From Minisyncoccota bacterium (GTDB taxonomy: Bacteria; Patescibacteriota; Minisyncoccia; Phycocordibacterales; CAJBRS01): a stretch of DNA of 64,000 nt. The stretch covers positions 59,639 to 123,638 of the forward strand of contig JADGRH010000001.1 of the NCBI GenBank assembly GCA_017881075.1, read 5' to 3'. Position 1 is the stretch's first letter; the number at the start of each line of letters is the position of its first letter. The notes under the pieces were generated by a model. That model was not told the DNA's origin and made no database searches. It worked only from the letters and a program-made list of their open reading frames with translations. Below, in pieces: positions 1 to 22,990 of this stretch. The position numbers and the translations under genes are program-made.

Positions 1-3000
1 GCAACCTCATCTATATTCAGGGTGAATGCTAATGGCAACGTCGGCATCGGGACGACGACACCGGGGTATAAGTTACACGTTAAGTCGGCTAGTGATATTC
101 AATTTGCTCTCGACGTTGATAGTGGAGGTAGATACACAAGTCAATATTTTCTGAATAATGGCTCAACTCGTGCGGTTAATTTTTGGGACGAGACGAGTAA
201 TAATTTAACAATTGGAACATCGCACTCGGGCGCAGATTTGATTTTCAATCGGGGATTAAATGCTGCAGCAATGACGATTAGTGGAACTACAGGCAACGTC
301 GGCATCGGGACGACGACGCCTAGTACAAAATTGTCAGTGGCAGGTCAAGGATTCTTTGAAACTTCGACTGAAACCCCAGTGGGTTCTGGAACTCCTGGTC
401 CTGGGATAAGGATTGGGTATCTTACAAGCGGTGATTATGGATATATAACTTCAAGTAATTCTGGTGTAGCGGCTAAAAACTTGGTTTTGCAGCCTGGCGG
501 AACTGGAAATGTGGGTATCAATCAAACTGTGCCATTAGATTTGCTTCATATAGCAGGTGATAACATAGCTACGATAAGATTGCAAAACACAATCTCTGGT
601 GGAAAAACGTACCAAATCGGTTCCGCCATTTCTGGTGTAAGTAATGCAGGTTTTCAAATCTATAATGTTACCAACTCAAGAAGTGAAATGGTAATTGATA
701 CAAACGGCAACGTCGGCATCGGGACGACGGCGCCGGGTGGAAAACTAAGTGTCTCCGGCGGTGCCGCTATTGGCTCATCTTACGCTACCACTGCAGTTTC
801 GGATGGAAATCTCATAGTTTCTGGTTCTTTGGGCATCGGGACGACGACTCCTGGATCTAAACTCGACATCTGGGGAAATCTCAATGTGGCTACTGGCACC
901 ACTCCGGCACTTTTCGTGAATACGGCGACGGGGAATGTGGGAATTGGAGTTATTAATCCCGGTAAACCTTTAGATGTAACGGGAGATATTAGAGCTAGTG
1001 GAAATCTGTTGGCAGGGGGCGGCAATGCTTATCTTTTTAACGGAGGAGTTAGATTAGGAAATTCTTCTGGAGAAATTGATCTTTCTGCTAACGATATGAT
1101 TTACGGACCCAATGCCGGAACAACCAATCATATATTCAAGATCGGAGGAAATGAAATCGCTAGGATAAATTCAACAGGAATCGGCATCGGCACGACAACC
1201 CCAGGAGCAAAGCTACATGCTCTTTCCACCACCGAGCAATTAAGACTAGGATACGATGCTTCAAACTACAATTCCTTCACTGTCGGTTCGACTGGAAGTC
1301 TCACAGTCGCCGCTGTAGGAACTAATCCTAATATCACCCTTACACCTGGTGGAACGGGGTATACCATATTGAACGGCAACGTCGGCATCGGAACGACGGC
1401 GCCGGGTCAAAAACTTGATGTGGCAGGAAACATTAATGTTTCAACTAATTCTGCCTATATGTATAACGGCCTGAATGTCATCACCGCATCAACTACATTG
1501 AGTAATTATTTCTTCGGTGGTTCTGGTAACTTAACAATGACTGGAAACGCCAACACCGCCAGTGGTTATCAGGCGCTCTATAGCAACACCACTGGAACCA
1601 CCAACACCGCCAGTGGTTTTCGTGCGCTCTATAGCAACACCACTGGAACCTACAACACCGCCAGTGGTATTAATGCGCTCTATAGCAACACCACTGGAAC
1701 CCGCAACACCGCCAATGGTCTTGGAGCGCTCTATAGCAACACCACTGGAGGCAATAATGCGGGATATGGTATCAACTCTGGCTACGGCCTCACCACTGGG
1801 AACAATAACACCTTAATCGGACCTTCTGATTCTGTGGTCGCTTCATACAATCAGGTTACTACTGGCTCTAACAACATTTCAATCGGCAACAATGTCGCCG
1901 TGGCCAGCCCAACGGCAAGTAATCAATTGAACATTGGTAATCTTATCTATGGTACAGGCTTGAATGGCACGGGAGCGACGATAAGTGGCGGCAACGTCGG
2001 CATTGGGACGATTGCCCCAGACAAAAAACTCGAAGTCAATTTAGGAACATCAGATGCTCTCCGACTCACTTACAACGACTCTGATGGAAGTGCGGCTAAC
2101 TATACGGATTTCAATGTTTCTTCCGTCGGAAGTTTGACCATTGCTCCCACAGGAACTAATCCTAATATTACTCTCACCCCAGGAGGAACGGGGTATACCA
2201 TATTGAACGGCAATGTTGGGATTGGGACGAGCACGCCGACGTTGCCATTGGTTGTTAACGGCAAAATTATGAGCTATGGGAACAGTACTAACCAGATTAC
2301 TATGTCACCGGCGGGCAATGGCGTAGACAGTTACGCTCATTTGCAAATATTCAACACCGCAGGGTATGGTCAGGGCTATTTGGATTTTTATACCTATCCC
2401 GGCCAGGGTCTGGGTACACCTACGGTAAGATGGCGGGGCGTTGACCTCGGCAGCTACACCGGTGGCCACGTATTCTCGGCTTCCGCCGCCTCGCAGAACG
2501 GCGCTTCCACGGATGTCTTATTCGTTGGAAATACCGGAGCTACTGGCGTACTTACTAATCATTTTGGCGTAGGTGTGTTAACTAACGCGCCAGTATCGGC
2601 GTTGGATGTTAACGGCGGGGTAAGCATCGGTTCATACGCCGCTGTTAACGCGGCCCCGAGCAACGGGTTAATTGTCAGTGGCAACGTCGGCATCGGGACG
2701 ACGACACCAGGATTTAATCTTCAGGTTGCAGGTACTGGAGTTTCAGCGGCATTTGGGGCGGCGGCAAATAATAACGGAGCGGGGGTTGCTTTCTTGGGGT
2801 CAAGCACTGGCAAAAATTTCTTTATCGGTAATCAATATAATATAGGTGGCGCTTTGGAGATTACGCCATCGACTGCCAATGGCGGTTCCACTTTCACGAC
2901 GCCTGTTGTCACAATTTTAAGCACCGGCAACGTCGGCATCGGGACGACGGCGCCAGGCACCAAACTGGAAGTGGTTGGTACGGCTTCTTCTACTGGTTTG

Positions 3001-6000
3001 CAGGTTAATGGCAACGGAGCAATCACAGGAACGATAAGTGCACCAACTTTTGTAGCTACCACAAACAATATCGCGTTCCTTTCACTAAAATCACTTTCTT
3101 CTACAATTGGAGTGGGAGTTACAAATGGAGATGTTCTTTCATTTGACTGGGGCGGAATATATCCAAAGGGGTATCAATTCAGAACATCGGCGACACAGGG
3201 GATTAATATAGATAGTTCAGGCAACGTCGGCATCGGGACGACGGCGCCAGGGGCATCTTTGCAAGTTGCTGGCACTGGTATATGGTCTAGCGTTTACGGT
3301 TTTTCTGCCGGTGGGAACGCGCCACTTGCAGTTGGCACAGCAGTACTTCGTACGGGTAATGACTTCCGTATTCAGGACGATGGTAGTTTTAAAATAAATC
3401 AAAGTGGCGCGGCGGCATTCCTGACAATATTAAACACCGGCAACGTCGGCATCGGCACGACGGCACCTAGGGAAAAACTTGATGTTGCGGGAAATATCAC
3501 CACGGATTGGGCAGACCGCTTCATTGGAACTGAATATCAAGATGGCTCTACTTACAGAATGGGTATGAAAGTAGTTACTTCAGATAGAGATTTGCAGATA
3601 ATTAACAAGAGCGCAGGAGAGAATTTTTCGGGAATTTCCTTTCATACGGGGACTGGTCCAACGGAGCGTATGAGAATTGATAAGGGCGGCAACGTCGGCA
3701 TCGGGACGACGAATCCTGGAAACAAGTTAGTTGTGAGCGGAGCCGGTTATACTTATGCAGAGGTAGATGCAAGTTCGAGCAGCGGAACATATTCCGGAGG
3801 TTATCGTGCATATAATGATGTCGGGGCACAGGTATTATTGGATATTTATGCCAGCTCCAGTGTGGGCACATATCTAGGCCAGCCTCTTTCTAATCTTGTA
3901 AGGTTAACGGATTATAGCGGTTCAAGCGGTATTGCCATAGGCACATACACAAATACTCCGCTCACGTTAGGCACCAATAATTCGGCAAGGTTGGTAATCA
4001 ATGGTGCAGGCAACGTCGGCATCGGGACGACGGCACCGAGTGCGAAGTTACAAGTAAATGTAGCCAGTGGGTATGCAAATACTTGGTGGTCAAATGATAG
4101 TGTAACTACTCCATTTAGCGCTATTTACGGAGCTCACGTTGTTGGGTCATTCGGTCAAAATTATTCAACGGGTGGAGGTGCTGATTTTGCTGGATTTAGT
4201 CACGCAAATAACGAAGTCGGGGTGGAATTTGACGGATATGTAGGGGGAACTAGTCCTACAGCACCTGCACTTTTATTGGCAGGTTGGAAGTCTAATGGCA
4301 CTACGGGTGCTTCGGCGATGAGTGGAACAGATATTATTGCGCAGATTGCGGCTGGTGCGTCTCCTGTTGTGACAGTTCAAGCAAACGGCAACGTCGGCAT
4401 CGGGACGACGTCACCTGTCTCAAAATTAGATGTCTCAGTAACTTCACCAGGGTCAACAAACTTTGGTTTAAGTGTGCGGGATTCTACCGTAACCCCAACG
4501 TATGCCAGTAATGCAGATAATCTTTTAACTGTAAGAGGGGCAGGCAGTTCGGTAACTACTTGGAAAGGAAGAATTACTGCAGGTGGAGATAATGTGGAAT
4601 TTCTTATGGGTGAATACAATTCTCTTGCTTGGTTAGGAGCGCATAATGCCGCCCTCAATGCTTGGACTAACATATATATTAACCCTGATGGTGGGTCAAA
4701 TGCATACATTGGAGATTCAGGTGGTGGAGTTAACAATATCCCAGTTCCGATTCTTGCGGTAATTAACAGCACCGGCAACGTCGGTATCGGGACGACGGCG
4801 CCAGATGTAAATCTAGCAATTGGTTCACAGTTACTTGGTGCGCAAGGATTAAGCGGAGCCGTCTTAAACCTTGGTGGTAGTTCCTCTCAAATGCCAGGCA
4901 TAAATATTGGGCAAGACGCTACTCACGCCATAGAGTTTTATTGGATAGGCAATGCGACACCTGGAAGTGCGACTGCTGCGTTGGAAACCTCTGGCTACTT
5001 AAATCCATTTGCTATTAACGGTTCAAAAACAACCATACAAAGTGCGGCTGGAAATGTGATATTGGCGACAGGTGGTGGCAACGTCGGCATCGGGACGACG
5101 GCACCGGGTGGAAAACTAAGCGTGTCCGGCGGTGCAGCTATTGGCTCATCTTACGCTACCACCGCAGTTTCGGATGGAAATCTCATAGTTTCTGGTTCTT
5201 TGGGCATCGGGACGACGGCGCCGGGGTCAAAGATTCAGGCTGTAGGAGGATATATATCAACTTTTGATAACACTGGATACGGACCTGCATTTATGCAAGG
5301 CGCAAGTGGTGTTTCATATTTCGGCAACACCGGGACTTCAAGAATTGCTTTCGGGAACAATACTAATTATGAAAGGATGACGATTTTAGATAACGGCAAC
5401 GTCGGCATCGGGACGACTACTCCGGGTTTTCTTCTCACTGTTGCTGGCACTTCCAACATCACCGGAGCGGCGATATTCGGATCGACTCTAGGAGTTACTG
5501 GTGCAACAACTCTTTCTTCAACTTTGGGCGTCACCGGCCAAACAACTCTGGCGAATGCTTCATCAACGAATCTCACCGTCTCCACTAATTCATATCTTGG
5601 AACTGTGCAGTCAGGAACTTGGAATGGAACGACCATTGCTGTAGCAAACGGAGGCACTGGCCAAACCACATACACTAATGGCCAACTCCTGATTGGTAAC
5701 ACTACCGGCAATACTCTTACAAAAGCAGCTTTGACAGGCACTACAAATCAAGTAGTAGTGACAAATAGCACAGGTTCAATCACTCTTTCCACTCCGCAGG
5801 ATATTGCTACGGCCTCCACTCCAACCTTCGCCTCAACCACTCTTTCAAACTTTACTCTAGGATCCATCCCATTCTTCGGCAGTAGTGGAAAACTGGGTCA
5901 AAACAATGCCAACTTTTTCTGGGATGGTACCAATAACAGATTAGGGATTGGGACATCTACTCCCGATACGCTCCTTACCGTTGCAGGAAACGGAAGATTC

Positions 6001-9000
6001 ACCGGCACCCTCTCCGCTTCAAATCTCTCCGGCACCAACACTGGCGATGTAACTCTAGGAGCAATTGCTGCTACTCCAAACGCAAACGGAGCTTCTCTTT
6101 CCGGGCAAGTCTTAACTTTGCAGCCAGCCTCGACTTCCTTTGGCGGTGTCGTTACAACCGGAACTCAATCGTTTACAGGAGATAAGACCTTTACATCAAA
6201 CTCACTCGCAGCTTTACAAGTTACGGGGAGTAACACAGGAAGAACCTCTATCACTGTTCAAAATACGAACGCATCAGGTAATGCATCATTCTACTTTCAA
6301 AATGATAGAGGTAGCTTCAATTCATACGGAGGCCTTTTGACAGGAGGTTCGTCAGATGTAGGAGGTACTTTATTTGGGCTTGCTCGTGCGGACAGAACCT
6401 TCTTGATAAATGATGGTACTAATGCTCTAGGACTTGCTCTTGGTACTTTGACAGCACAGCCATTGACACTAGGAACGAATAATTTGGCACGGGTCACAAT
6501 TCTAAGTGGTGGTAATGTCGGAATTGGAACGACAGCACCGACCAGCACACTTGAATTATATAGAGGCGATAACAATATCGGGCCAACTCTTACTTTGAAT
6601 AATCCTACTGGAAATGCAGGCACCGCCGGATCAGCAATAGACTTTCTCGGTTATAGCGGAGCGAGCCAGCCGGTTACTAATAGGATTAAAACCATCGACG
6701 ATGGAGCTTATGGCTATCATTTAGCATTTCTCACCAAAGCGGATTCTTCGGGAGGAGCACTTTTTGAAGCAATGAGGATACAAGGAGGCACGGGCAATGT
6801 TGGGATCGCCACCACCACTCCGGGCTTTCCACTTACAGTGACAGGCGCTTCTAATTTCACCGGCGCCCTCAACTTTAACGGCGCCGCTGGATCTTCCGGA
6901 AACATCCTCCAATCAAACGGATCGGGAAGCGCTCCAAGCTGGGTATCAACCACCACACTCGGTACCATTGCGGTAAACCAAGGCGGCACCGGCCAAACTA
7001 CTTATACAAACGGCCAGCTCTTGATCGGAAACACCACCGGAAATACATTAACAAAAGCAACTCTCACGGGCACCGCTAACCAAGTGAATGTTACGAATGG
7101 TGCTGGTTCAATTACCCTTTCTACTCCTCAAAATATTGGTACCACATCCTCTCCCACATTTAACTCTCTCAATATCGCTAATGGATCAACATATAGCGGT
7201 TGGATAGGTAATTTCGGGCTAGGCTCTGACTGGGTTGGATTTACCGCAGATGGAGCGCAAAGTGCTTCAAAGTATGCATTCGAAGCAACGGCATCATATG
7301 GTGAAACTGTTTTTAATGCTAACGGTGGGGGGACATTGCCCTTCATTGATTTTCGATTTTCCAACGGGGGTGTTGAACCTATTACCAGAATATATGGGTC
7401 TGGCGGGCTCTATTTTGGTAGTGTGGCTGGTGCTGCTGACCCCGGTTTACAGAACCTCTCTATCTTTTCTGGAAAACTTGGTGTTGGGGTTCTAACCGCT
7501 TCTGCCAAAATCCACGCCCTTTCCACCACCGAGCAATTAAGACTAGGCTACGATGCTTCCAACTACAATTCCTTTACTGTCGGTTCAACTGGAAGTCTCA
7601 CAGTCGCCGCTGTAGGAACTAATCCTAATATTACCCTCACGCCGGGCGGAACTGGGTATACCATATTGAACGGCAACGTCGGCATCGGGACGACGACGCC
7701 AGGGGCAAAGTTGAGTGTCAAAGGTGGTGGTACTACAACAGGTCTTAACTTCCAAACTACAAACTCTAATAACCTACCTTTGGTCACAATATTAGACTCC
7801 GGCAACGTCGGCATCGGGACGACGACGCCGGGGAATAAACTCCAGATAAATGCTGCTCTTGCCACTGCTTCTGAATCTTTGCTTCGTCTGTCTGGAGGGT
7901 CAACGGGATTTGCCGGGACCAATGATGCAGGCACTGCGTATTCTCTTGTGTTCGATGGTACTGCATATAGTGTTGGTACTGGAGTTGTGCAACGTGATGG
8001 TGCAAAGATTGAGATGGCAAAAGAGGCATCGTGGAACGAAGCCGGTGGTGGCGGCGGTCCGCTTGGAGCATTATTGTTCTACACGAGTGCAGGTTCAATT
8101 GCATCTCCGAAGCTAACGGAAAAAATGAGAATAACAAGTCTCGGCAACGTCGGTATCGGGACGACGGCGCCGGATTCGAAGTTAACTATTTCATCAAATA
8201 CCGCAACCTTACCGTCTGGGGCAGCCACACTTCGTATTGCTGAAGCCGATACCGTGCAGACTAGCGCGGTTATAGACGCTTTTGCTACTAACGGGCTTTT
8301 TAACTTTCGACGGGCCGACACTACGGCGGCAAGCCCCTCGGCGGTCCAGTCTGGTGAAAATTTGGGCGTGTTCGGCGCCGCTGGCTACGGAACCAGTGCT
8401 TATTCCGGCACCCGCGCCCGCGTTGGATTTTTTGCCGATGAGACTTGGACGAATACTGCTAATGGAACATCCATTCGCTTTAGCACTACGCTCAATGGCG
8501 CCGCCACAGCGGGAGGCACGGAACGCATGAGAATAGATAACGCCGGCAATGTCGGAATTGGCACCTCCACCCCGGACCAAGCTCTAGTTGTATCAGGTAC
8601 GGCAAGAGCTACCAACTTACTCGGAGGTGCCACAACTCTTTCAACCGATGCTTCAGGTAACATTATTCGTACTCCATCAGACATTAGTCTCAAGGAAAAC
8701 ATCCAAAATATCGATAGCGCTGATGCTCTAAGCCAGGTTCTAGCCCTTCAAGGAGTAACCTATTTCTGGAAGGACAAGGCGAGATTTGGCACTGCCCAAG
8801 AAATTGGCTTCATCGCCCAGCAAGTCGAACCGATTGTCCCCCAAGTAGTTAAAAGCGGAGGAGCCTACAAATCCCTTAACTATGGTAACTTAACAGCCGT
8901 CCTTGCCAGCGCCATTCAAGAGCAACAAAAACAGATTACAGCCAATGCTTCAACGACGCGGGCCAATGCCTCAAGCACCGCCTCCGCTCTTTCTTCACTG

Positions 9001-9606
9001 GATCTTAGAGTAAGTACCTTAGAGAACCTGGGACCCCAAAGAGGGGGTGGAGGAGTCAGCACTGGAATCTTTGAAGATCTCCTTTCAACACTACAATCCT
9101 TTGGCACCGAAATCGTTGACGGAGTTTCTTATATGAAGAACTTCCTTGCTGAACATCTCACTACCCAGAACTTGACTATAAAAGGCAAAGATATTACGAA
9201 GACAGGATTCACTATTTATGATCGGGCTACCGGCGATCCTATCTGCGTCTATTTTGAGAACGGGATCCAAAAGACTTCCCCAGGCGAGTGTCCCGACAGC
9301 ACAGCTACTTCAACTCCTCCAACAGACACTACCTCCATTGTCTCAGACAACAACCCCCCAATAGATCCCCTCACCGGATCCAGCACTCCTCCGATCTCCG
9401 ATATCGGATCAAATCCTCCTCCAGACCAACCCCCTCCAACACCACCACCCGCCGACCCCACTCCGCCCTCCGATCCCACCTCCTTGATAGCGCCGAGCGC
9501 CCCAACATCACCACCAGCCCCTGATACGTCAGGATCGAATCCTTCTGATTCGACGTCCGCTCCCGCTGATCCGGGCTCGGCTCCTTCCAATGGGGGAGGC
9601 AATTAG
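1..9606 (+). CDS. Giant repetitive surface/fibre-like protein (5'-truncated at window edge; >3194 aa) with C-terminal phage tail-spike-type intramolecular chaperone (peptidase S74-like) domain and Pro/Thr-rich tail
   Basis: Frame 1 is open from nt 1 with no upstream stop, and the ORF-track start at 22 is GTG. The motif GNVGIGTT(T/A)PGxKL recurs about 18 times. Near the C-terminus, 'SDISLKENIQNI...LQGVTYFWKD...IGFIAQQVEPIVPQVV...YGNLTAVLASAIQEQQ' fits the chaperone-of-endosialidase / S74 consensus. The last ~100 aa are P/T/S-rich low complexity. Stop is TAG at 9604-9606. Confidence 0.8.
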   Translation, partial: ATSSIFRVNANGNVGIGTTTPGYKLHVKSASDIQFALDVDSGGRYTSQYFLNNGSTRAVNFWDETSNNLTIGTSHSGADLIFNRGLNAAAMTISGTTGNVGIGTTTPSTKLSVAGQGFFETSTETPVGSGTPGPGIRIGYLTSGDYGYITSSNSGVAAKNLVLQPGGTGNVGINQTVPLDLLHIAGDNIATIRLQNTISGGKTYQIGSAISGVSNAGFQIYNVTNSRSEMVIDTNGNVGIGTTAPGGKLSVSGGAAIGSSYATTAVSDGNLIVSGSLGIGTTTPGSKLDIWGNLNVATGTTPALFVNTATGNVGIGVINPGKPLDVTGDIRASGNLLAGGGNAYLFNGGVRLGNSSGEIDLSANDMIYGPNAGTTNHIFKIGGNEIARINSTGIGIGTTTPGAKLHALSTTEQLRLGYDASNYNSFTVGSTGSLTVAAVGTNPNITLTPGGTGYTILNGNVGIGTTAPGQKLDVAGNINVSTNSAYMYNGLNVITASTTLSNYFFGGSGNLTMTGNANTASGYQALYSNTTGTTNTASGFRALYSNTTGTYNTASGINALYSNTTGTRNTANGLGALYSNTTGGNNAGYGINSGYGLTTGNNNTLIGPSDSVVASYNQVTTGSNNISIGNNVAVASPTASNQLNIGNLIYGTGLNGTGATISGGNVGIGTIAPDKKLEVNLGTSDALRLTYNDSDGSAANYTDFNVSSVGSLTIAPTGTNPNITLTPGGTGYTILNGNVGIGTSTPTLPLVVNGKIMSYGNSTNQITMSPAGNGVDSYAHLQIFNTAGYGQGYLDFYTYPGQGLGTPTVRWRGVDLGSYTGGHVFSASAASQNGASTDVLFVGNTGATGVLTNHFGVGVLTNAPVSALDVNGGVSIGSYAAVNAAPSNGLIVSGNVGIGTTTPGFNLQVAGTGVSAAFGAAANNNGAGVAFLGSSTGKNFFIGNQYNIGGALEITPSTANGGSTFTTPVVTILSTGNVGIGTTAPGTKLEVVGTASSTGLQVNGNGAITGTISAPTFVATTNNIAFLSLKSLSSTIGVGVTNGDVLSFDWGGIYPKGYQFRTSATQGINIDSSGNVGIGTTAPGASLQVAGTGIWSSVYGFSAGGNAPLAVGTAVLRTGNDFRIQDDGSFKINQSGAAAFLTILNTGNVGIGTTAPREKLDVAGNITTDWADRFIGTEYQDGSTYRMGMKVVTSDRDLQIINKSAGENFSGISFHTGTGPTERMRIDKGGNVGIGTTNPGNKLVVSGAGYTYAEVDASSSSGTYSGGYRAYNDVGAQVLLDIYASSSVGTYLGQPLSNLVRLTDYSGSSGIAIGTYTNTPLTLGTNNSARLVINGAGNVGIGTTAPSAKLQVNVASGYANTWWSNDSVTTPFSAIYGAHVVGSFGQNYSTGGGADFAGFSHANNEVGVEFDGYVGGTSPTAPALLLAGWKSNGTTGASAMSGTDIIAQIAAGASPVVTVQANGNVGIGTTSPVSKLDVSVTSPGSTNFGLSVRDSTVTPTYASNADNLLTVRGAGSSVTTWKGRITAGGDNVEFLMGEYNSLAWLGAHNAALNAWTNIYINPDGGSNAYIGDSGGGVNNIPVPILAVINSTGNVGIGTTAPDVNLAIGSQLLGAQGLSGAVLNLGGSSSQMPGINIGQDATHAIEFYWIGNATPGSATAALETSGYLNPFAINGSKTTIQSAAGNVILATGGGNVGIGTTAPGGKLSVSGGAAIGSSYATTAVSDGNLIVSGSLGIGTTAPGSKIQAVGGYISTFDNTGYGPAFMQGASGVSYFGNTGTSRIAFGNNTNYERMTILDNGNVGIGTTTPGFLLTVAGTSNITGAAIFGSTLGVTGATTLSSTLGVTGQTTLANASSTNLTVSTNSYLGTVQSGTWNGTTIAVANGGTGQTTYTNGQLLIGNTTGNTLTKAALTGTTNQVVVTNSTGSITLSTPQDIATASTPTFASTTLSNFTLGSIPFFGSSGKLGQNNANFFWDGTNNRLGIGTSTPDTLLTVAGNGRFTGTLSASNLSGTNTGDVTLGAIAATPNANGASLSGQVLTLQPASTSFGGVVTTGTQSFTGDKTFTSNSLAALQVTGSNTGRTSITVQNTNASGNASFYFQNDRGSFNSYGGLLTGGSSDVGGTLFGLARADRTFLINDGTNALGLALGTLTAQPLTLGTNNLARVTILSGGNVGIGTTAPTSTLELYRGDNNIGPTLTLNNPTGNAGTAGSAIDFLGYSGASQPVTNRIKTIDDGAYGYHLAFLTKADSSGGALFEAMRIQGGTGNVGIATTTPGFPLTVTGASNFTGALNFNGAAGSSGNILQSNGSGSAPSWVSTTTLGTIAVNQGGTGQTTYTNGQLLIGNTTGNTLTKATLTGTANQVNVTNGAGSITLSTPQNIGTTSSPTFNSLNIANGSTYSGWIGNFGLGSDWVGFTADGAQSASKYAFEATASYGETVFNANGGGTLPFIDFRFSNGGVEPITRIYGSGGLYFGSVAGAADPGLQNLSIFSGKLGVGVLTASAKIHALSTTEQLRLGYDASNYNSFTVGSTGSLTVAAVGTNPNITLTPGGTGYTILNGNVGIGTTTPGAKLSVKGGGTTTGLNFQTTNSNNLPLVTILDSGNVGIGTTTPGNKLQINAALATASESLLRLSGGSTGFAGTNDAGTAYSLVFDGTAYSVGTGVVQRDGAKIEMAKEASWNEAGGGGGPLGALLFYTSAGSIASPKLTEKMRITSLGNVGIGTTAPDSKLTISSNTATLPSGAATLRIAEADTVQTSAVIDAFATNGLFNFRRADTTAASPSAVQSGENLGVFGAAGYGTSAYSGTRARVGFFADETWTNTANGTSIRFSTTLNGAATAGGTERMRIDNAGNVGIGTSTPDQALVVSGTARATNLLGGATTLSTDASGNIIRTPSDISLKENIQNIDSADALSQVLALQGVTYFWKDKARFGTAQEIGFIAQQVEPIVPQVVKSGGAYKSLNYGNLTAVLASAIQEQQKQITANASTTRANASSTASALSSLDLRVSTLENLGPQRGGGGVSTGIFEDLLSTLQSFGTEIVDGVSYMKNFLAEHLTTQNLTIKGKDITKTGFTIYDRATGDPICVYFENGIQKTSPGECPDSTATSTPPTDTTSIVSDNNPPIDPLTGSSTPPISDIGSNPPPDQPPPTPPPADPTPPSDPTSLIAPSAPTSPPAPDTSGSNPSDSTSAPADPGSAPSNGGGN
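1561..1800 (+). repeat. In-frame tandem repeat of a ~60-nt unit (about 4 copies), encoding NTASG(Y/F/I)xALYSNTTGTxNTASG, inside the giant gene
   Basis: 'caccgccagtggt...gcgctctatagcaacaccactggaacc' is visibly repeated at 1553-1612, 1613-1672, 1673-1732 and 1733-1790. Confidence 0.8.
9391..9412. repeat. REP-type palindrome TCCGATATCGGA (family 1), embedded in the 3' coding region of the giant gene (encodes PISDIGS)
   Basis: Perfect 12-nt palindrome tccgatatcgga preceded by the partial duplicate tccgatc. The same core recurs at 10438-10449 and 10520-10531. Confidence 0.7.
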
Positions 9607-9736
9607 GGGTTAATCCCTGGTGGAATATCCATAAGAGGTTAAACCTCTTATGAGCTTAGATCATGATTACTCACATTCTCATTAAAATTTCCATTAGTTT
9701 ACACGGTCTAGTGATGAAATATCGCTTCTTATTGCG

Positions 9737-9762
9737 TTAATCTACGCTCCGATCTCCGATGT
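9737..9762. repeat. REP-type near-palindrome (tccgatgtcgga variant of family 1) overlapping the 3' end of the RAYT gene
   Basis: 'gctccgatctccgatgtcggatcgaattc' has the same core as the other family-1 copies with a central 2-nt change. It encodes the RAYT C-terminus ...PTSEIGA. Confidence 0.6.
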
Positions 9763-10428
9763 CGGATCGAATTCATCAAATGTTTTGGCAGGACTTGTGT
9801 CTACAAAATGCTTGTACTCTTCTTTGTTTTTAAATTGGTCAAGAATGAGATCTGTTTTTAGAAGTTCACCCCATCGATTTTCTCCAATATAGTCTTGATA
9901 ACTTGACCAAGGGTAAAAATGCTCCTTGTCCTTCCACCCCGGCAATTCTCGTGCGTTTCTATGAATATAAGCGGAAAGGTGAAGCAACTGAGTATTGTCT
10001 GCAATCAGGACACTCTTGAAAGCTCCCTGAAATAGGTGCCCGATATGAAGATCTTTATATTTTTCATTATTATATTTTGTAGCGGAGATTATAATTCTTT
10101 GTAAATATTTTGATAAAGCTCCATCTTTTTTCCCTGTCGCACTTAGATGAAAGTGATTTGGCATTAAGCCGAATGAGTGAAGCTCCACAGTACGCGAGGC
10201 GACGATCTCCGAAATGATTTTCTTGCTGACCTGGAATTTCCTATGCTTCTCAAAGTATTTTACATATTGAGATAGGTGGCTAAACTTAATCGGAGACTGG
10301 AAAAATAGTATAGTAAAAAGAAAGCGAATATAATCGCGATTATCGTGGAAAATAATTTGCTTATTATTGCCTCTGCTAAGGAGATGAAATACTTCACCCG
10401 CGGCCAAGTTGTCTTTTCTATATGGCAT
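9742..10428 (-). CDS. REP-associated tyrosine transposase (RAYT; IS200/IS605-like HUH transposase)
   Basis: HUH motif 'LMPNHFHL', size about 228 aa, conserved Tyr-containing C-terminal region, flanked on both sides by family-1 REP palindromes. Confidence 0.75.
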   Translation of the reverse strand: MPYRKDNLAAGEVFHLLSRGNNKQIIFHDNRDYIRFLFTILFFQSPIKFSHLSQYVKYFEKHRKFQVSKKIISEIVASRTVELHSFGLMPNHFHLSATGKKDGALSKYLQRIIISATKYNNEKYKDLHIGHLFQGAFKSVLIADNTQLLHLSAYIHRNARELPGWKDKEHFYPWSSYQDYIGENRWGELLKTDLILDQFKNKEEYKHFVDTSPAKTFDEFDPTSEIGA

Positions 10429-10458
10429 TATCTTCCGATCTCCGATATCGGAAGATTT
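10429..10458. repeat. REP hairpin (family 1): atcttccgat-ctccgat-atcggaagat
   Basis: 10-bp inverted repeat arms atcttccgat/atcggaagat enclosing the tccgatatcgga core, immediately 5' of the RAYT start. Confidence 0.7.
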
Positions 10459-10512
10459 AGTATAATAATAGCAGATGAAATATCCTTAAAGATTTTATGA
10501 AAATTTCTTTTT

Positions 10513-10558
10513 ACACTAGTCCGATATCGGAGAATGGAGGATTCATTATACTAGTGAT
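10513..10558. repeat. REP hairpin (family 1) with outer cactagt/actagtg inverted repeat
   Basis: 'cactagtccgatatcggagaatggaggattcattatactagtg' contains the perfect tccgatatcgga core and 7-bp outer inverted repeats. Confidence 0.6.
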
Positions 10559-22062: not shown

Positions 22063-22088
22063 ACGCTTAAAATCATAACATATCTCTT

Positions 22089-22107
22089 GCAGAGGTCTGA
22101 CCTCTGC
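22089..22107. repeat. REP palindrome family 2: GCAGAGGTCTGACCTCTGC
   Basis: Perfect 19-nt palindrome. Copies occur at 22089-22107, 22190-22208 and 22916-22934. Confidence 0.8.
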
Positions 22108-22189
22108 AGCCGAGTTTCTGCAGATTTTTTTTATCTATAATTTATATTTCCTTTAATGTTTCTTCATAGTCGGTACTATAAAATATCTT

Positions 22190-22208
22190 GCAGAGGTCAG
22201 ACCTCTGC
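22190..22208. repeat. REP palindrome family 2 copy (central A variant) directly abutting the RAYT start codon
   Basis: gcagaggtcagacctctgc, followed 3 nt later by the RAYT ATG at 22212. Confidence 0.8.
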
Positions 22209-22211
22209 AAG

Positions 22212-22907
22212 ATGAGAAAAGAACCATTTAATGTCGGATCATACATTCATGTAATAAAAAGAGGCCATAGAAAGTCTCTCATTGTTCGGGATGAGAATGA
22301 CAGAAATCATTTTGAGCGAATCTTGTATTACCTGAATCATAAGAAATCATTGCCCGAACGTTGGTCTCAGATTTTAAGAGAAAAGAGAATTAAGAATTTT
22401 GATTTTCCTAAGGAGTGGGGAAAAAGAAAGCCTTTGGTAAAAATTGTAGCTTATGCTCTAATGCCGAACCATCTTCATCTATTTCTGAAAGAAATTGTTG
22501 AAGGAGGAGTAACGACTTTCATGAGAAAAATAGGCAATAGCATGACAGCTCATTTTAATCTCAGACATGAAGAATCTGGAACGCTTTTTCCAGGTGCCTA
22601 TCGGTCTAAAACAATTGAAGACGATGCTTATTTTCGTTACTGTGGAGTATATATCATGGTCAAAAATATTTTTGAGCTTTATCCTGGTGGACTCGAGCGA
22701 GCAAAAAAAGAATTTGAGATAGCATTTCAATGGGCTTTAAATTATAGATTCAGCAGTTTGCCGGAATATCTGAATATCAGGACTCAACCGATAATCGATA
22801 AGGAATTGTTAGGGGAACTCTTTTTCGGTCCTAAGGACTTCAAGGATTTTGCTAGAGATTGTATTTTAGGAAGGAAACCTGATTTTAATGAGATAAATCT
22901 AGAGTAA
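22212..22907 (+). CDS. REP-associated tyrosine transposase (RAYT, second distinct copy/family)
   Basis: HUH motif 'LMPNHLHLF', about 231 aa, bracketed by family-2 REP palindromes. The ORF-track start at 22188 lies inside the REP, so the second Met (22212) was chosen. Confidence 0.75.
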   Translation: MRKEPFNVGSYIHVIKRGHRKSLIVRDENDRNHFERILYYLNHKKSLPERWSQILREKRIKNFDFPKEWGKRKPLVKIVAYALMPNHLHLFLKEIVEGGVTTFMRKIGNSMTAHFNLRHEESGTLFPGAYRSKTIEDDAYFRYCGVYIMVKNIFELYPGGLERAKKEFEIAFQWALNYRFSSLPEYLNIRTQPIIDKELLGELFFGPKDFKDFARDCILGRKPDFNEINLE

Positions 22908-22915
22908 ATGAAATC

Positions 22916-22934
22916 TGCAGAGGTCTGACCTCTG
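22916..22934. repeat. REP palindrome family 2 copy 3' of the RAYT gene
   Basis: ctgcagaggtctgacctctgcag is a 23-nt palindrome 9 nt after the RAYT stop. Confidence 0.8.
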
Positions 22935-22990
22935 CAGGAAATTTATGGGTTGCGCCGATAATTCTAATTTGCTACACTACCTCCTACACT

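Follow-up and report, generated by a model that had tools for sequence, protein, structure and literature searches.

Whether a gene for a single-strand DNA transposase and the short palindromes around it belong to a genome-wide repeat family, to an insertion sequence, or to a system confined to its own surroundings is the question raised by positions 9387–10542 of a 64-kb stretch of contig JADGRH010000001.1 from a Minisyncoccota bacterium. This stretch is hereafter termed the window, and copy counts for the source organism are counts within it. A preliminary description had presented the locus as a classic unit of repetitive extragenic palindromes (REPs) and a REP-associated tyrosine transposase (RAYT), encoded at 9742–10428. 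The reading that we consider probable, if well short of certain, is a REPtron/TIRtron-like unit comprised of a single-copy, probably domesticated class-2 Y1 HUH enzyme and its own cognate DNA stem-loop.

The protein belongs to the HUH/Y1 family, as had been recognized from its LMPNHFHL motif. The sole Pfam match is Y1_Tnp (PF01797; 37.6 bits, cut-off 23), and from the sequence the HUH motif is assigned to N91-H92-F93-H94 (PNHFHL) and the catalytic tyrosine to Y154 (AYIHRNA). In an alignment of 33 homologs, N91, H92, H94, Y154, and N158 are invariant, along with a C-terminal block (PWSSYQDY..NRWG), and this strict conservation of the HUH and tyrosine residues argues that DNA cleavage has been retained. 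The AlphaFold (AF2) model (predicted local distance difference test score, pLDDT, 89.4) is weak only at residues 1–5 and 218–228 (the latter with pLDDT <50), and has a TnpA-type fold: the best Foldseek match is Escherichia coli TnpAREP bound to a REP hairpin (4ER8; E 1.9e-5, TM 0.67 on the target), followed by the TnpA proteins of IS608 and ISDra2 (E ~2e-3). Searches of the PDB were uninformative with the single sequence (E 1.5) and gave weak matches with a profile. Relatives number more than 1,460 at 50–62% identity; those with names are nearly all from metagenome-assembled genomes of Patescibacteria/Parcubacteria, and almost all are singleton clusters, found on one contig. A profile search of 1.84 billion representatives returned 750 clusters at E <= 1e-30 and 12,521 at E <= 1e-10.

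The gene and the hairpin copies that accompany it in the window are as follows:

9387–9414, plus strand: copy 1, solo; 19-mer core at 9390–9408, exact; 358 nt beyond copy 2 and in the same orientation
9742–10428, minus strand: Y1 HUH endonuclease/transposase-like gene; 228 amino acids (aa); class-2 TnpAY1, RAYT/TIRYT-like; contains LMPNHFHL
9748–9766, plus strand: copy 2, downstream hairpin TCCGATCTCCGATGTCGGA (A>G), within the 3' end of the Y1 gene
10200–10215, plus strand: possible decayed internal copy, weak; CGACGATCTCCGAAAT, the sense strand of which (TCGGAGATCG) encodes ISEIV
10430–10456, plus strand: copy 3, proximal upstream hairpin ATCTTCCGAT-CTCCGAT-ATCGGAAGAT; 10-bp stem, 7-nt loop; core at 10434–10452, exact 19-mer
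10453–10519, no strand assigned: AT-rich spacer of 67 nt between copies 3 and 4, probable promoter region
10520–10542, minus strand: copy 4, distal upstream, inverted; 5' arm degenerate (TCCATT for TCCGAT), two mismatches to the 19-mer

The 12-mer TCCGATATCGGA, originally taken as the repeated word, occurs exactly at 9397–9408, 10441–10452, and 10520–10531 and with one mismatch (TCCGATGTCGGA) at 9755–9766; these are four matches at <=1 mismatch in the window, where 0.19 are expected and none of 100 shuffles reaches four. Three of the four copies had thus been placed correctly to within a few bases (9398, 10438, 10520), while the variant reported at 9744 lies at 9755 (12-mer) or 9748 (19-mer). 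The repeat unit is longer than this word: a 19-mer, TCCGATCTCCGATATCGGA, is exact at 9390–9408 and 10434–10452, has one mismatch at 9748–9766, and recurs inverted with two mismatches at 10520–10538 (0.03 expected). Copies 1 and 2 are identical at 24 of 26 nt, 3' flank included. Copy 3 stops 1 nt short of the ATG at 10428, and together with copy 4 it forms an inverted doublet spanning 10430–10542 (23-nt repeats, 87% complementary, 67 nt apart) that resembles a REPIN, i.e., two REPs in inverted arrangement. A promoter role for the intervening spacer is offered as inference only, because a consensus scan for promoters and terminators, spacer 10453–10519 included, gave nothing above shuffles and no terminator-like site.

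The whole copy set is confined to 1.15 kb, and the ~62.8 kb of the window outside it contain no further copy (19-mer at <=3 mismatches; at 16 of 26 matches, none above background). Chance similarity or an assembly artifact, for which nothing speaks except the small copy number, is excluded by the expectations given above (0.19 and 0.03), by an independently assembled 5-kb Logan contig (L001) identical to the window, and by the same architecture in dozens of independent metagenomic loci.

Folding of the copies indicates that the structural repeat unit is a stem-loop of 19–27 nt. As single-stranded DNA, copies 1–3 have a minimum-energy fold with a TCCGAT/ATCGGA stem (6–10 bp) closed by CTCCGAT, a loop of 7 nt; for copy 3 the pairing extends to 10 bp (ATCTTCCGAT/ATCGGAAGAT; −8.6 kcal/mol, z −4.6). 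Copy 4 folded alone is degenerate and not significant, and the doublet of copies 3 and 4 forms a long hairpin (−19.2 kcal/mol, z −3.7). The palindrome core, as the 12-mer had been called, is not the structural unit: a 12-mer hairpin has a 4-bp stem that is invariant and hence uninformative, copies 1–3 have another minimum-energy fold, and the palindromic look of the word comes from a loop whose 3' part duplicates the stem. The closest homolog (P0002, 62% identity, locus L032) has the same layout, with two inverted copies upstream and one downstream, and its repeat, TCCGAC-TTCCGAT-GTCGGA, keeps the loop and compensates the stem. When the four window copies and the three from L032 are aligned on a model with a 10-bp stem and a 7-nt loop, 81% of cells are paired, compared with 26–50% in slid controls; five stem pairs show compensatory (two-sided) changes, and the covariation score is reached by one of 500 shuffles. 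Rfam returned only sub-threshold plant miRNA-precursor models on the long inverted doublet, which reflects hairpin shape alone.

The pairing of gene and hairpin holds across the family. We collected 80 homolog loci from metagenomes, together with several found by exact look-up; both flanks were available for 72, and 46 had a clear motif. The 200 nt upstream of the gene and its 3' end plus 200 nt downstream have a word of at least 9 nt in common in 68 of the 72 loci, and one of at least 13 nt in 53, compared with 5 of 295 controls of the same geometry placed elsewhere in the same loci. The bracketing elements are near-perfect palindromes with stems of 7–16 bp, loops of 3–7 nt, and lineage-specific sequence. 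On the upstream side, the distance from the hairpin end to the start codon is usually 4–60 nt; on the downstream side, the hairpin is placed at about −36 to +44, counted from the stop codon, and in 12 of 46 loci it overlaps the gene's 3' end. Two loci (L073 and L111) carry two divergent paralogs per contig, each with a private palindrome.

The window itself holds a second such unit, with a palindrome of its own, TGCAGAGGT-CWG-ACCTCTGCA, in three exact copies laid out as at the first gene:

22088–22108: paralog palindrome, distal upstream, exact
22189–22209: paralog palindrome abutting the ATG, exact
22212–22907, plus strand: Y1_Tnp paralog, 231 aa; 28% identical to the first protein (tblastn); Pfam Y1_Tnp 24.5 bits, cut-off 23; PNHLHL
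22916–22936: paralog palindrome 8 nt past the stop codon, exact

Outside 22088–22936 this palindrome does not occur in the rest of the window. Each tnpAREP gene has been described as having its own repeat family (PMC6006769), a rule that the two window units match.

If the unit were a classic REP/RAYT system, the hairpin would belong to a genome-wide REP/REPIN family mobilized by the RAYT, and the window would merely show its REPtron. The layout is indeed REPtron-like, with the REPIN-like inverted doublet upstream, the fold is nearest to TnpAREP, and related loci do contain a few genuine solo copies. Across the 46 loci, eight full-length solo copies lie 0.5–3.5 kb from the gene (201 kb surveyed at 0.4–4 kb), five of them inside long open reading frames (ORFs), at loci including L041, L079, L113, and L109; none lies more than 4 kb from the gene in 158 kb of related loci, a near/far split with a probability of ~0.01 under a uniform distribution. 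In L109, solo copies of the palindrome GAGGTCSGACCTC at 1223–1250 and 2009–2036 are in frame, 2.7–3.5 kb from the Y1 gene, and their host ORFs resemble ComF (712–1389) and DprA (1248–2201), as judged by eye from the translations. The window has the same pattern, with one solo copy 358 nt off, in frame in the neighboring ORF.

The word TCCRWTCTCCGATRTCGGA has 30 scattered singleton occurrences in 185,579 GTDB representative genomes, a collection that lacks the source genome, with ~35 estimated by chance and no Patescibacteria contig among them, and viral contigs yielded one unrelated singleton. The exact 19-mer TCCGATCTCCGATGTCGGA plus TTT (identical to copy 2) occurs at three intergenic sites in Flaviaesturariibacter flavus, an unrelated member of the Bacteroidota (L018, 1356–1374; L020, 2643–2661; L022, 1779–1797). 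Three copies in one genome are far above chance, and thus the hairpin can act as a dispersed repeat somewhere; no Y1 gene is present near them within these 8-kb stretches. In the source organism, the evidence runs the other way. The preliminary description had itself named confinement of the palindrome to this one place as evidence against a REP family, and within the window it is found only at the Y1 locus, the hairpins of both units being absent from the remaining 62.8 kb. Of the classic REP/RAYT assignment, the HUH/Y1 enzyme, the TnpAREP-like fold, and the cognate hairpins around the gene stand; it is only partly supported because a GTAG foot is lacking, the NCBIfam RAYT cut-off is missed, and no dispersed copies were found. 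Furthermore, the protein signature fits TnpAY1 subclass 2.1, in which REPs were not found (PMC6006769). We consider membership in a mobilized, genome-wide family very unlikely.

Another explanation is an autonomous insertion sequence of the IS200/IS605 type, in which the gene and two subterminal hairpins would transpose together via a single-stranded circle. This would account for hairpins tight at both gene ends in nearly all lineages, and for the direct, same-strand orientation of the proximal upstream and downstream copies in the window and in L032, which is that of IS200/IS605 ends; a neighborhood that varies between lineages also fits. Copy number and locus stability argue against it. There is one copy per contig, the window protein and its paralog each form a singleton cluster on one contig, and the two are only 28% identical to each other. 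The homologs P0106 and P0036 were found in 24 contigs each, from many samples (L118–L126 and L127–L136), always at the same locus. The protein is also unlike that of IS200, having 228 aa, a conserved C-terminal extension, and Y---N(P), as opposed to ~150 aa and Y---Q (PMC6006769), and hairpin orientation is inconsistent across the family. We therefore regard a mobile element of this type as quite unlikely. Single or low copy number with a housekeeping-like distribution is a described RAYT trait (PMC5581495), and the singleton clusters and fixed loci seen here correspond to it.

The position of the proximal hairpin raises the alternative that the hairpins chiefly regulate a domesticated nuclease gene in cis, as operators, as occluders of translation, or as structures at transcript ends, with no DNA mobilization and with the copy in the neighboring giant ORF an accidental local duplication. 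Folded as RNA on the sense strand, copy 3 reaches −13.1 kcal/mol and its stem ends 1 nt before the AUG, and the 14-bp stem of the paralog's proximal hairpin takes in two bases of the AUG, A and U (−24.6 kcal/mol, z −5.9). The proximal hairpin ends 4–30 nt before the start codon in many homologs, near-perfect palindromes are typical of sites for dimeric proteins, and the copy number is very low. A purely regulatory role does not account for the copies downstream of the gene, for internal copies that are in frame and vary together with the flanking ones (17 of 46 loci), or for the full-length solo copies 0.5–3.5 kb off inside other genes, and the HUH and tyrosine residues are strictly conserved. 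We judge this explanation unlikely as the main one.

Two of the copies at this locus lie inside coding sequence, the first in the giant ORF that converges with the Y1 gene:

22–9606: giant ORF, >3,194 aa, open at the window start, with many GNVGIGTT(T/A)PG repeats

This ORF encodes a Peptidase_S74 (endosialidase chaperone) domain at nt 8677–8853, followed by a P/S/T-rich tail of ~250 aa that holds copy 1, in frame and ~180 aa past the domain. As had been noticed earlier, the copy is translated; it reads PPISDIG (context ...TPPISDIGSNPPP...). S74 intramolecular chaperone domains have their C-terminal part cut off after folding, from which we infer that the tail should tolerate insertions. The second coding copy, also correctly recognized at the outset, is copy 2: of the enzyme's last eight residues (...EFDPTSEIGA*), it supplies seven, DPTSEIG; this tail is disordered in the model and unrelated among homologs.

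In 17 of the 46 related loci (including L071, L080, L107, L100, L035, L034, L073, L109, L114, and L083), a third copy of the lineage palindrome is present in frame within the enzyme gene, at nt +161 to +198. The N-terminal block and the strand before the HUH motif are joined there by a linker that varies in length and sequence, and the copy encodes different peptides in each lineage (LVKHLVFDK in L071; QSYEAKPRKIG in L080) while co-varying with the flanking copies. No clear internal copy is present in the 228-aa gene of the window. The only candidate is a 13-nt stretch at 10203–10215 (CGATCTCCGAAAT), identical to the repeat at 12 of 13 nt (92%), which may be a decayed copy or chance; it falls in the variable linker where many homologs hold their in-frame third palindrome. 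REPs in frame inside tnpAREP (subclass 2.4) and inside other genes have been described before (PMC6006769, PMC3733652).

Several further observations concern the giant ORF and its surroundings. A derivation of its P-rich tail from several decayed repeats is not supported: one weak half-site (9461–9474, 12 of 14 nt) was found, together with hits at background level. A strong, unrelated hairpin at 9630–9652, CATAAGAGGT-TAA-ACCTCTTATG (z −4.7, single copy in the window), occupies the gap where the giant ORF and the Y1 gene converge, between their stop codons, and may form a transcript end in both directions; in its stem (GAGGT/ACCTC) it is similar to private palindromes of distant homologs, e.g., those of L083 and L113. 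Facing the P0106 and P0036 genes, in convergent orientation, is a large surface-protein gene (CARDB; DUF2341/LamG), with a called length that ranges from 517 to >1,129 aa between samples, and this geometry equals that of the window. A preferential convergence with giant surface-protein genes is not robust: the downstream ORF has at least 700 aa in 8 of 50 loci, compared with 6% of all ORFs, in a sample that is redundant and partly hand-picked.

Taken by its proposed mechanism, the REPtron/TIRtron-like unit would work as follows. By analogy with TnpAREP and the IS200/IS605 TnpA proteins, the enzyme would recognize the folded hairpin on single-stranded DNA and cut beside it, with His92/His94 holding a metal ion and Tyr154 forming a 5'-phosphotyrosine link, and would then rejoin the strands. 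Such activity would maintain and homogenize the flanking copies, and would now and then place a new copy in the vicinity, among other sites in frame within disordered protein tails that tolerate it. If it is transcribed, the proximal hairpin at the start codon probably limits translation of the enzyme as well; in IS200, a stem-loop is known to occlude the element's own ribosome-binding site. Repeats that are private, or concentrated locally near the gene, are part of the REPtron/TIRtron concept (PMC3733652, PMC8266576).

A number of observations weigh against this interpretation. The protein scores 31.3 bits against the NCBIfam REP_Tyr_transpos equivalog (NF047646; cut-off 80), and where the class-2 motif is Y---NP (PMC6006769) and the clade consensus YIHRNP, the window protein has YIHRNA. 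The 5' flanks of the four copies (CACTCC, CTACGC, TTATCT, and GAATCC) contain no GTAG or GTGG, so that the GT[AG]G foot is absent. Upstream and downstream loops are in direct orientation in about half of the family and inverted in the other half, which is a clean match to neither the IS200 nor the RAYT rule, and near-perfect palindromes could equally serve as operator sites on double-stranded DNA. The copy number in the source organism is known from the 64-kb window only, and the activity of clade members is argued from analogy with TnpAREP and IS200/IS605 TnpA. Finally, the neighborhood differs between lineages (only L033 and L118 share GyrB-PheS upstream), which implies some mobility or frequent rearrangement; the patchy distribution of class 2, attributed to horizontal transfer followed by loss (PMC6006769), fits such differing neighborhoods.

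A broader proposal can be made for the family as a whole, which we put forward tentatively and consider unlikely to hold in full: that domesticated Y1 HUH enzymes of this kind make up a large, apparently undescribed clade spanning the Patescibacteria (750 clusters at 50% identity, E <= 1e-30), in which each enzyme works on private hairpins, these being maintained in concert on both sides of the gene and, for about a third of lineages, also at a third, in-frame site, in a self-directed system with no genome-wide spreading. If this were true, the system could serve autoregulation, self-editing, or local rearrangement beside the gene, and in the last case hairpins might be seeded in frame into giant surface-protein genes and into the ComF-like and DprA-like ORFs of L109.

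The biology of RAYTs and REPs has so far been worked out almost wholly in Proteobacteria, and we found no paper in the literature on Y1 enzymes in the Candidate Phyla Radiation (CPR). The window locus shows that reduced CPR genomes keep one or two Y1 genes, each with private hairpins that can be written in frame into proteins. This bears on annotation, because the genes are not active insertion sequences, as well as on how short palindromes enter coding sequence and on the role of domesticated single-strand DNA transposases that have no repeat family to spread.

Among known systems, the REPtrons of E. coli (yafM), Stenotrophomonas, and Marinomonas share with the window unit a single-copy Y1 HUH gene bracketed by co-evolving cognate stem-loops, the REPIN-like upstream doublet, and the nearest solved fold (4ER8). 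Perfect-palindrome REPs with 3–4 nt loops are on record, as is a concentration of REPs near the gene (PMC2817692, PMC8266576); in Marinomonas the REPs are concentrated beside tnpAREP (PMC8266576), and in some bacteria the flanking repeats are not genome-wide (PMC2817692). The window unit differs in having neither the GT[AG]G foot nor any dispersed family seen, in falling below the NCBIfam RAYT cut-off, in having FQ rather than WQ/WE and a longer C-terminal extension, and in its host, a member of the Patescibacteria (CPR) rather than a Proteobacterium. With IS200/IS605 elements (TnpAY1 subclass 1.1) it shares the HUH/tyrosine chemistry, a subterminal hairpin at either end (same-strand at the window locus), and a hairpin near the start codon; unlike theirs, the window gene is not multi-copy, encodes 228 rather than ~150 aa with Y---N instead of Y---Q, and has no tnpB. 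With the TnpAY1 subclass 2.4 genes and their intragenic REPs it shares frame-keeping repeats in coding sequence (the 3' end of the enzyme gene, the tail of the giant ORF, the internal copies of homologs, and the L109 ORFs). In the window's clade the internal copy lies N-terminal to the HUH motif, in a hypervariable linker, and the window gene is without a clear one.

The TIRtron/TIRYT systems are TnpAY1 subclass 2.1, which equals the TIRYTs of De Nocera et al. and Bertels group 1. The signature of this subclass is NH[YF]H, FQ, Y[IV]HxNP, and SS in about 225–238 aa (Quentin et al., 2018, PMC6006769), and by eye, from motifs compared with Table 1 of that study, the window protein corresponds to it (NHFH, GHLFQG, YIHRN(P/A), PWSSYQDY, 228 aa). 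The flanking repeats of TIRtrons are usually private, sometimes self-complementary, sometimes overlap the gene ends, and occur as singles or dimers (PMC3733652). The window unit is unlike them in that Pfam finds no Bac_DnaA_C or helix-turn-helix (HTH) C-terminal domain (a trait of subgroup 2.1.2) and in that its repeats are of the TCCGAT type, without the GGGGWSAS consensus; moreover, Quentin et al. found no REP-like hairpins in subclass 2.1, whereas the clade of the window protein almost always has hairpins. The locus is best read as a REPtron/TIRtron-like unit within a large, apparently undescribed CPR group of class-2 Y1 enzymes whose hairpins are private and stay local. Every feature of it has a published precedent, and for this reason the result is modest as regards the locus itself. 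The part that could repay work is the family-wide pattern of private hairpins apparently kept in concert, including the in-frame copy in the enzyme gene.

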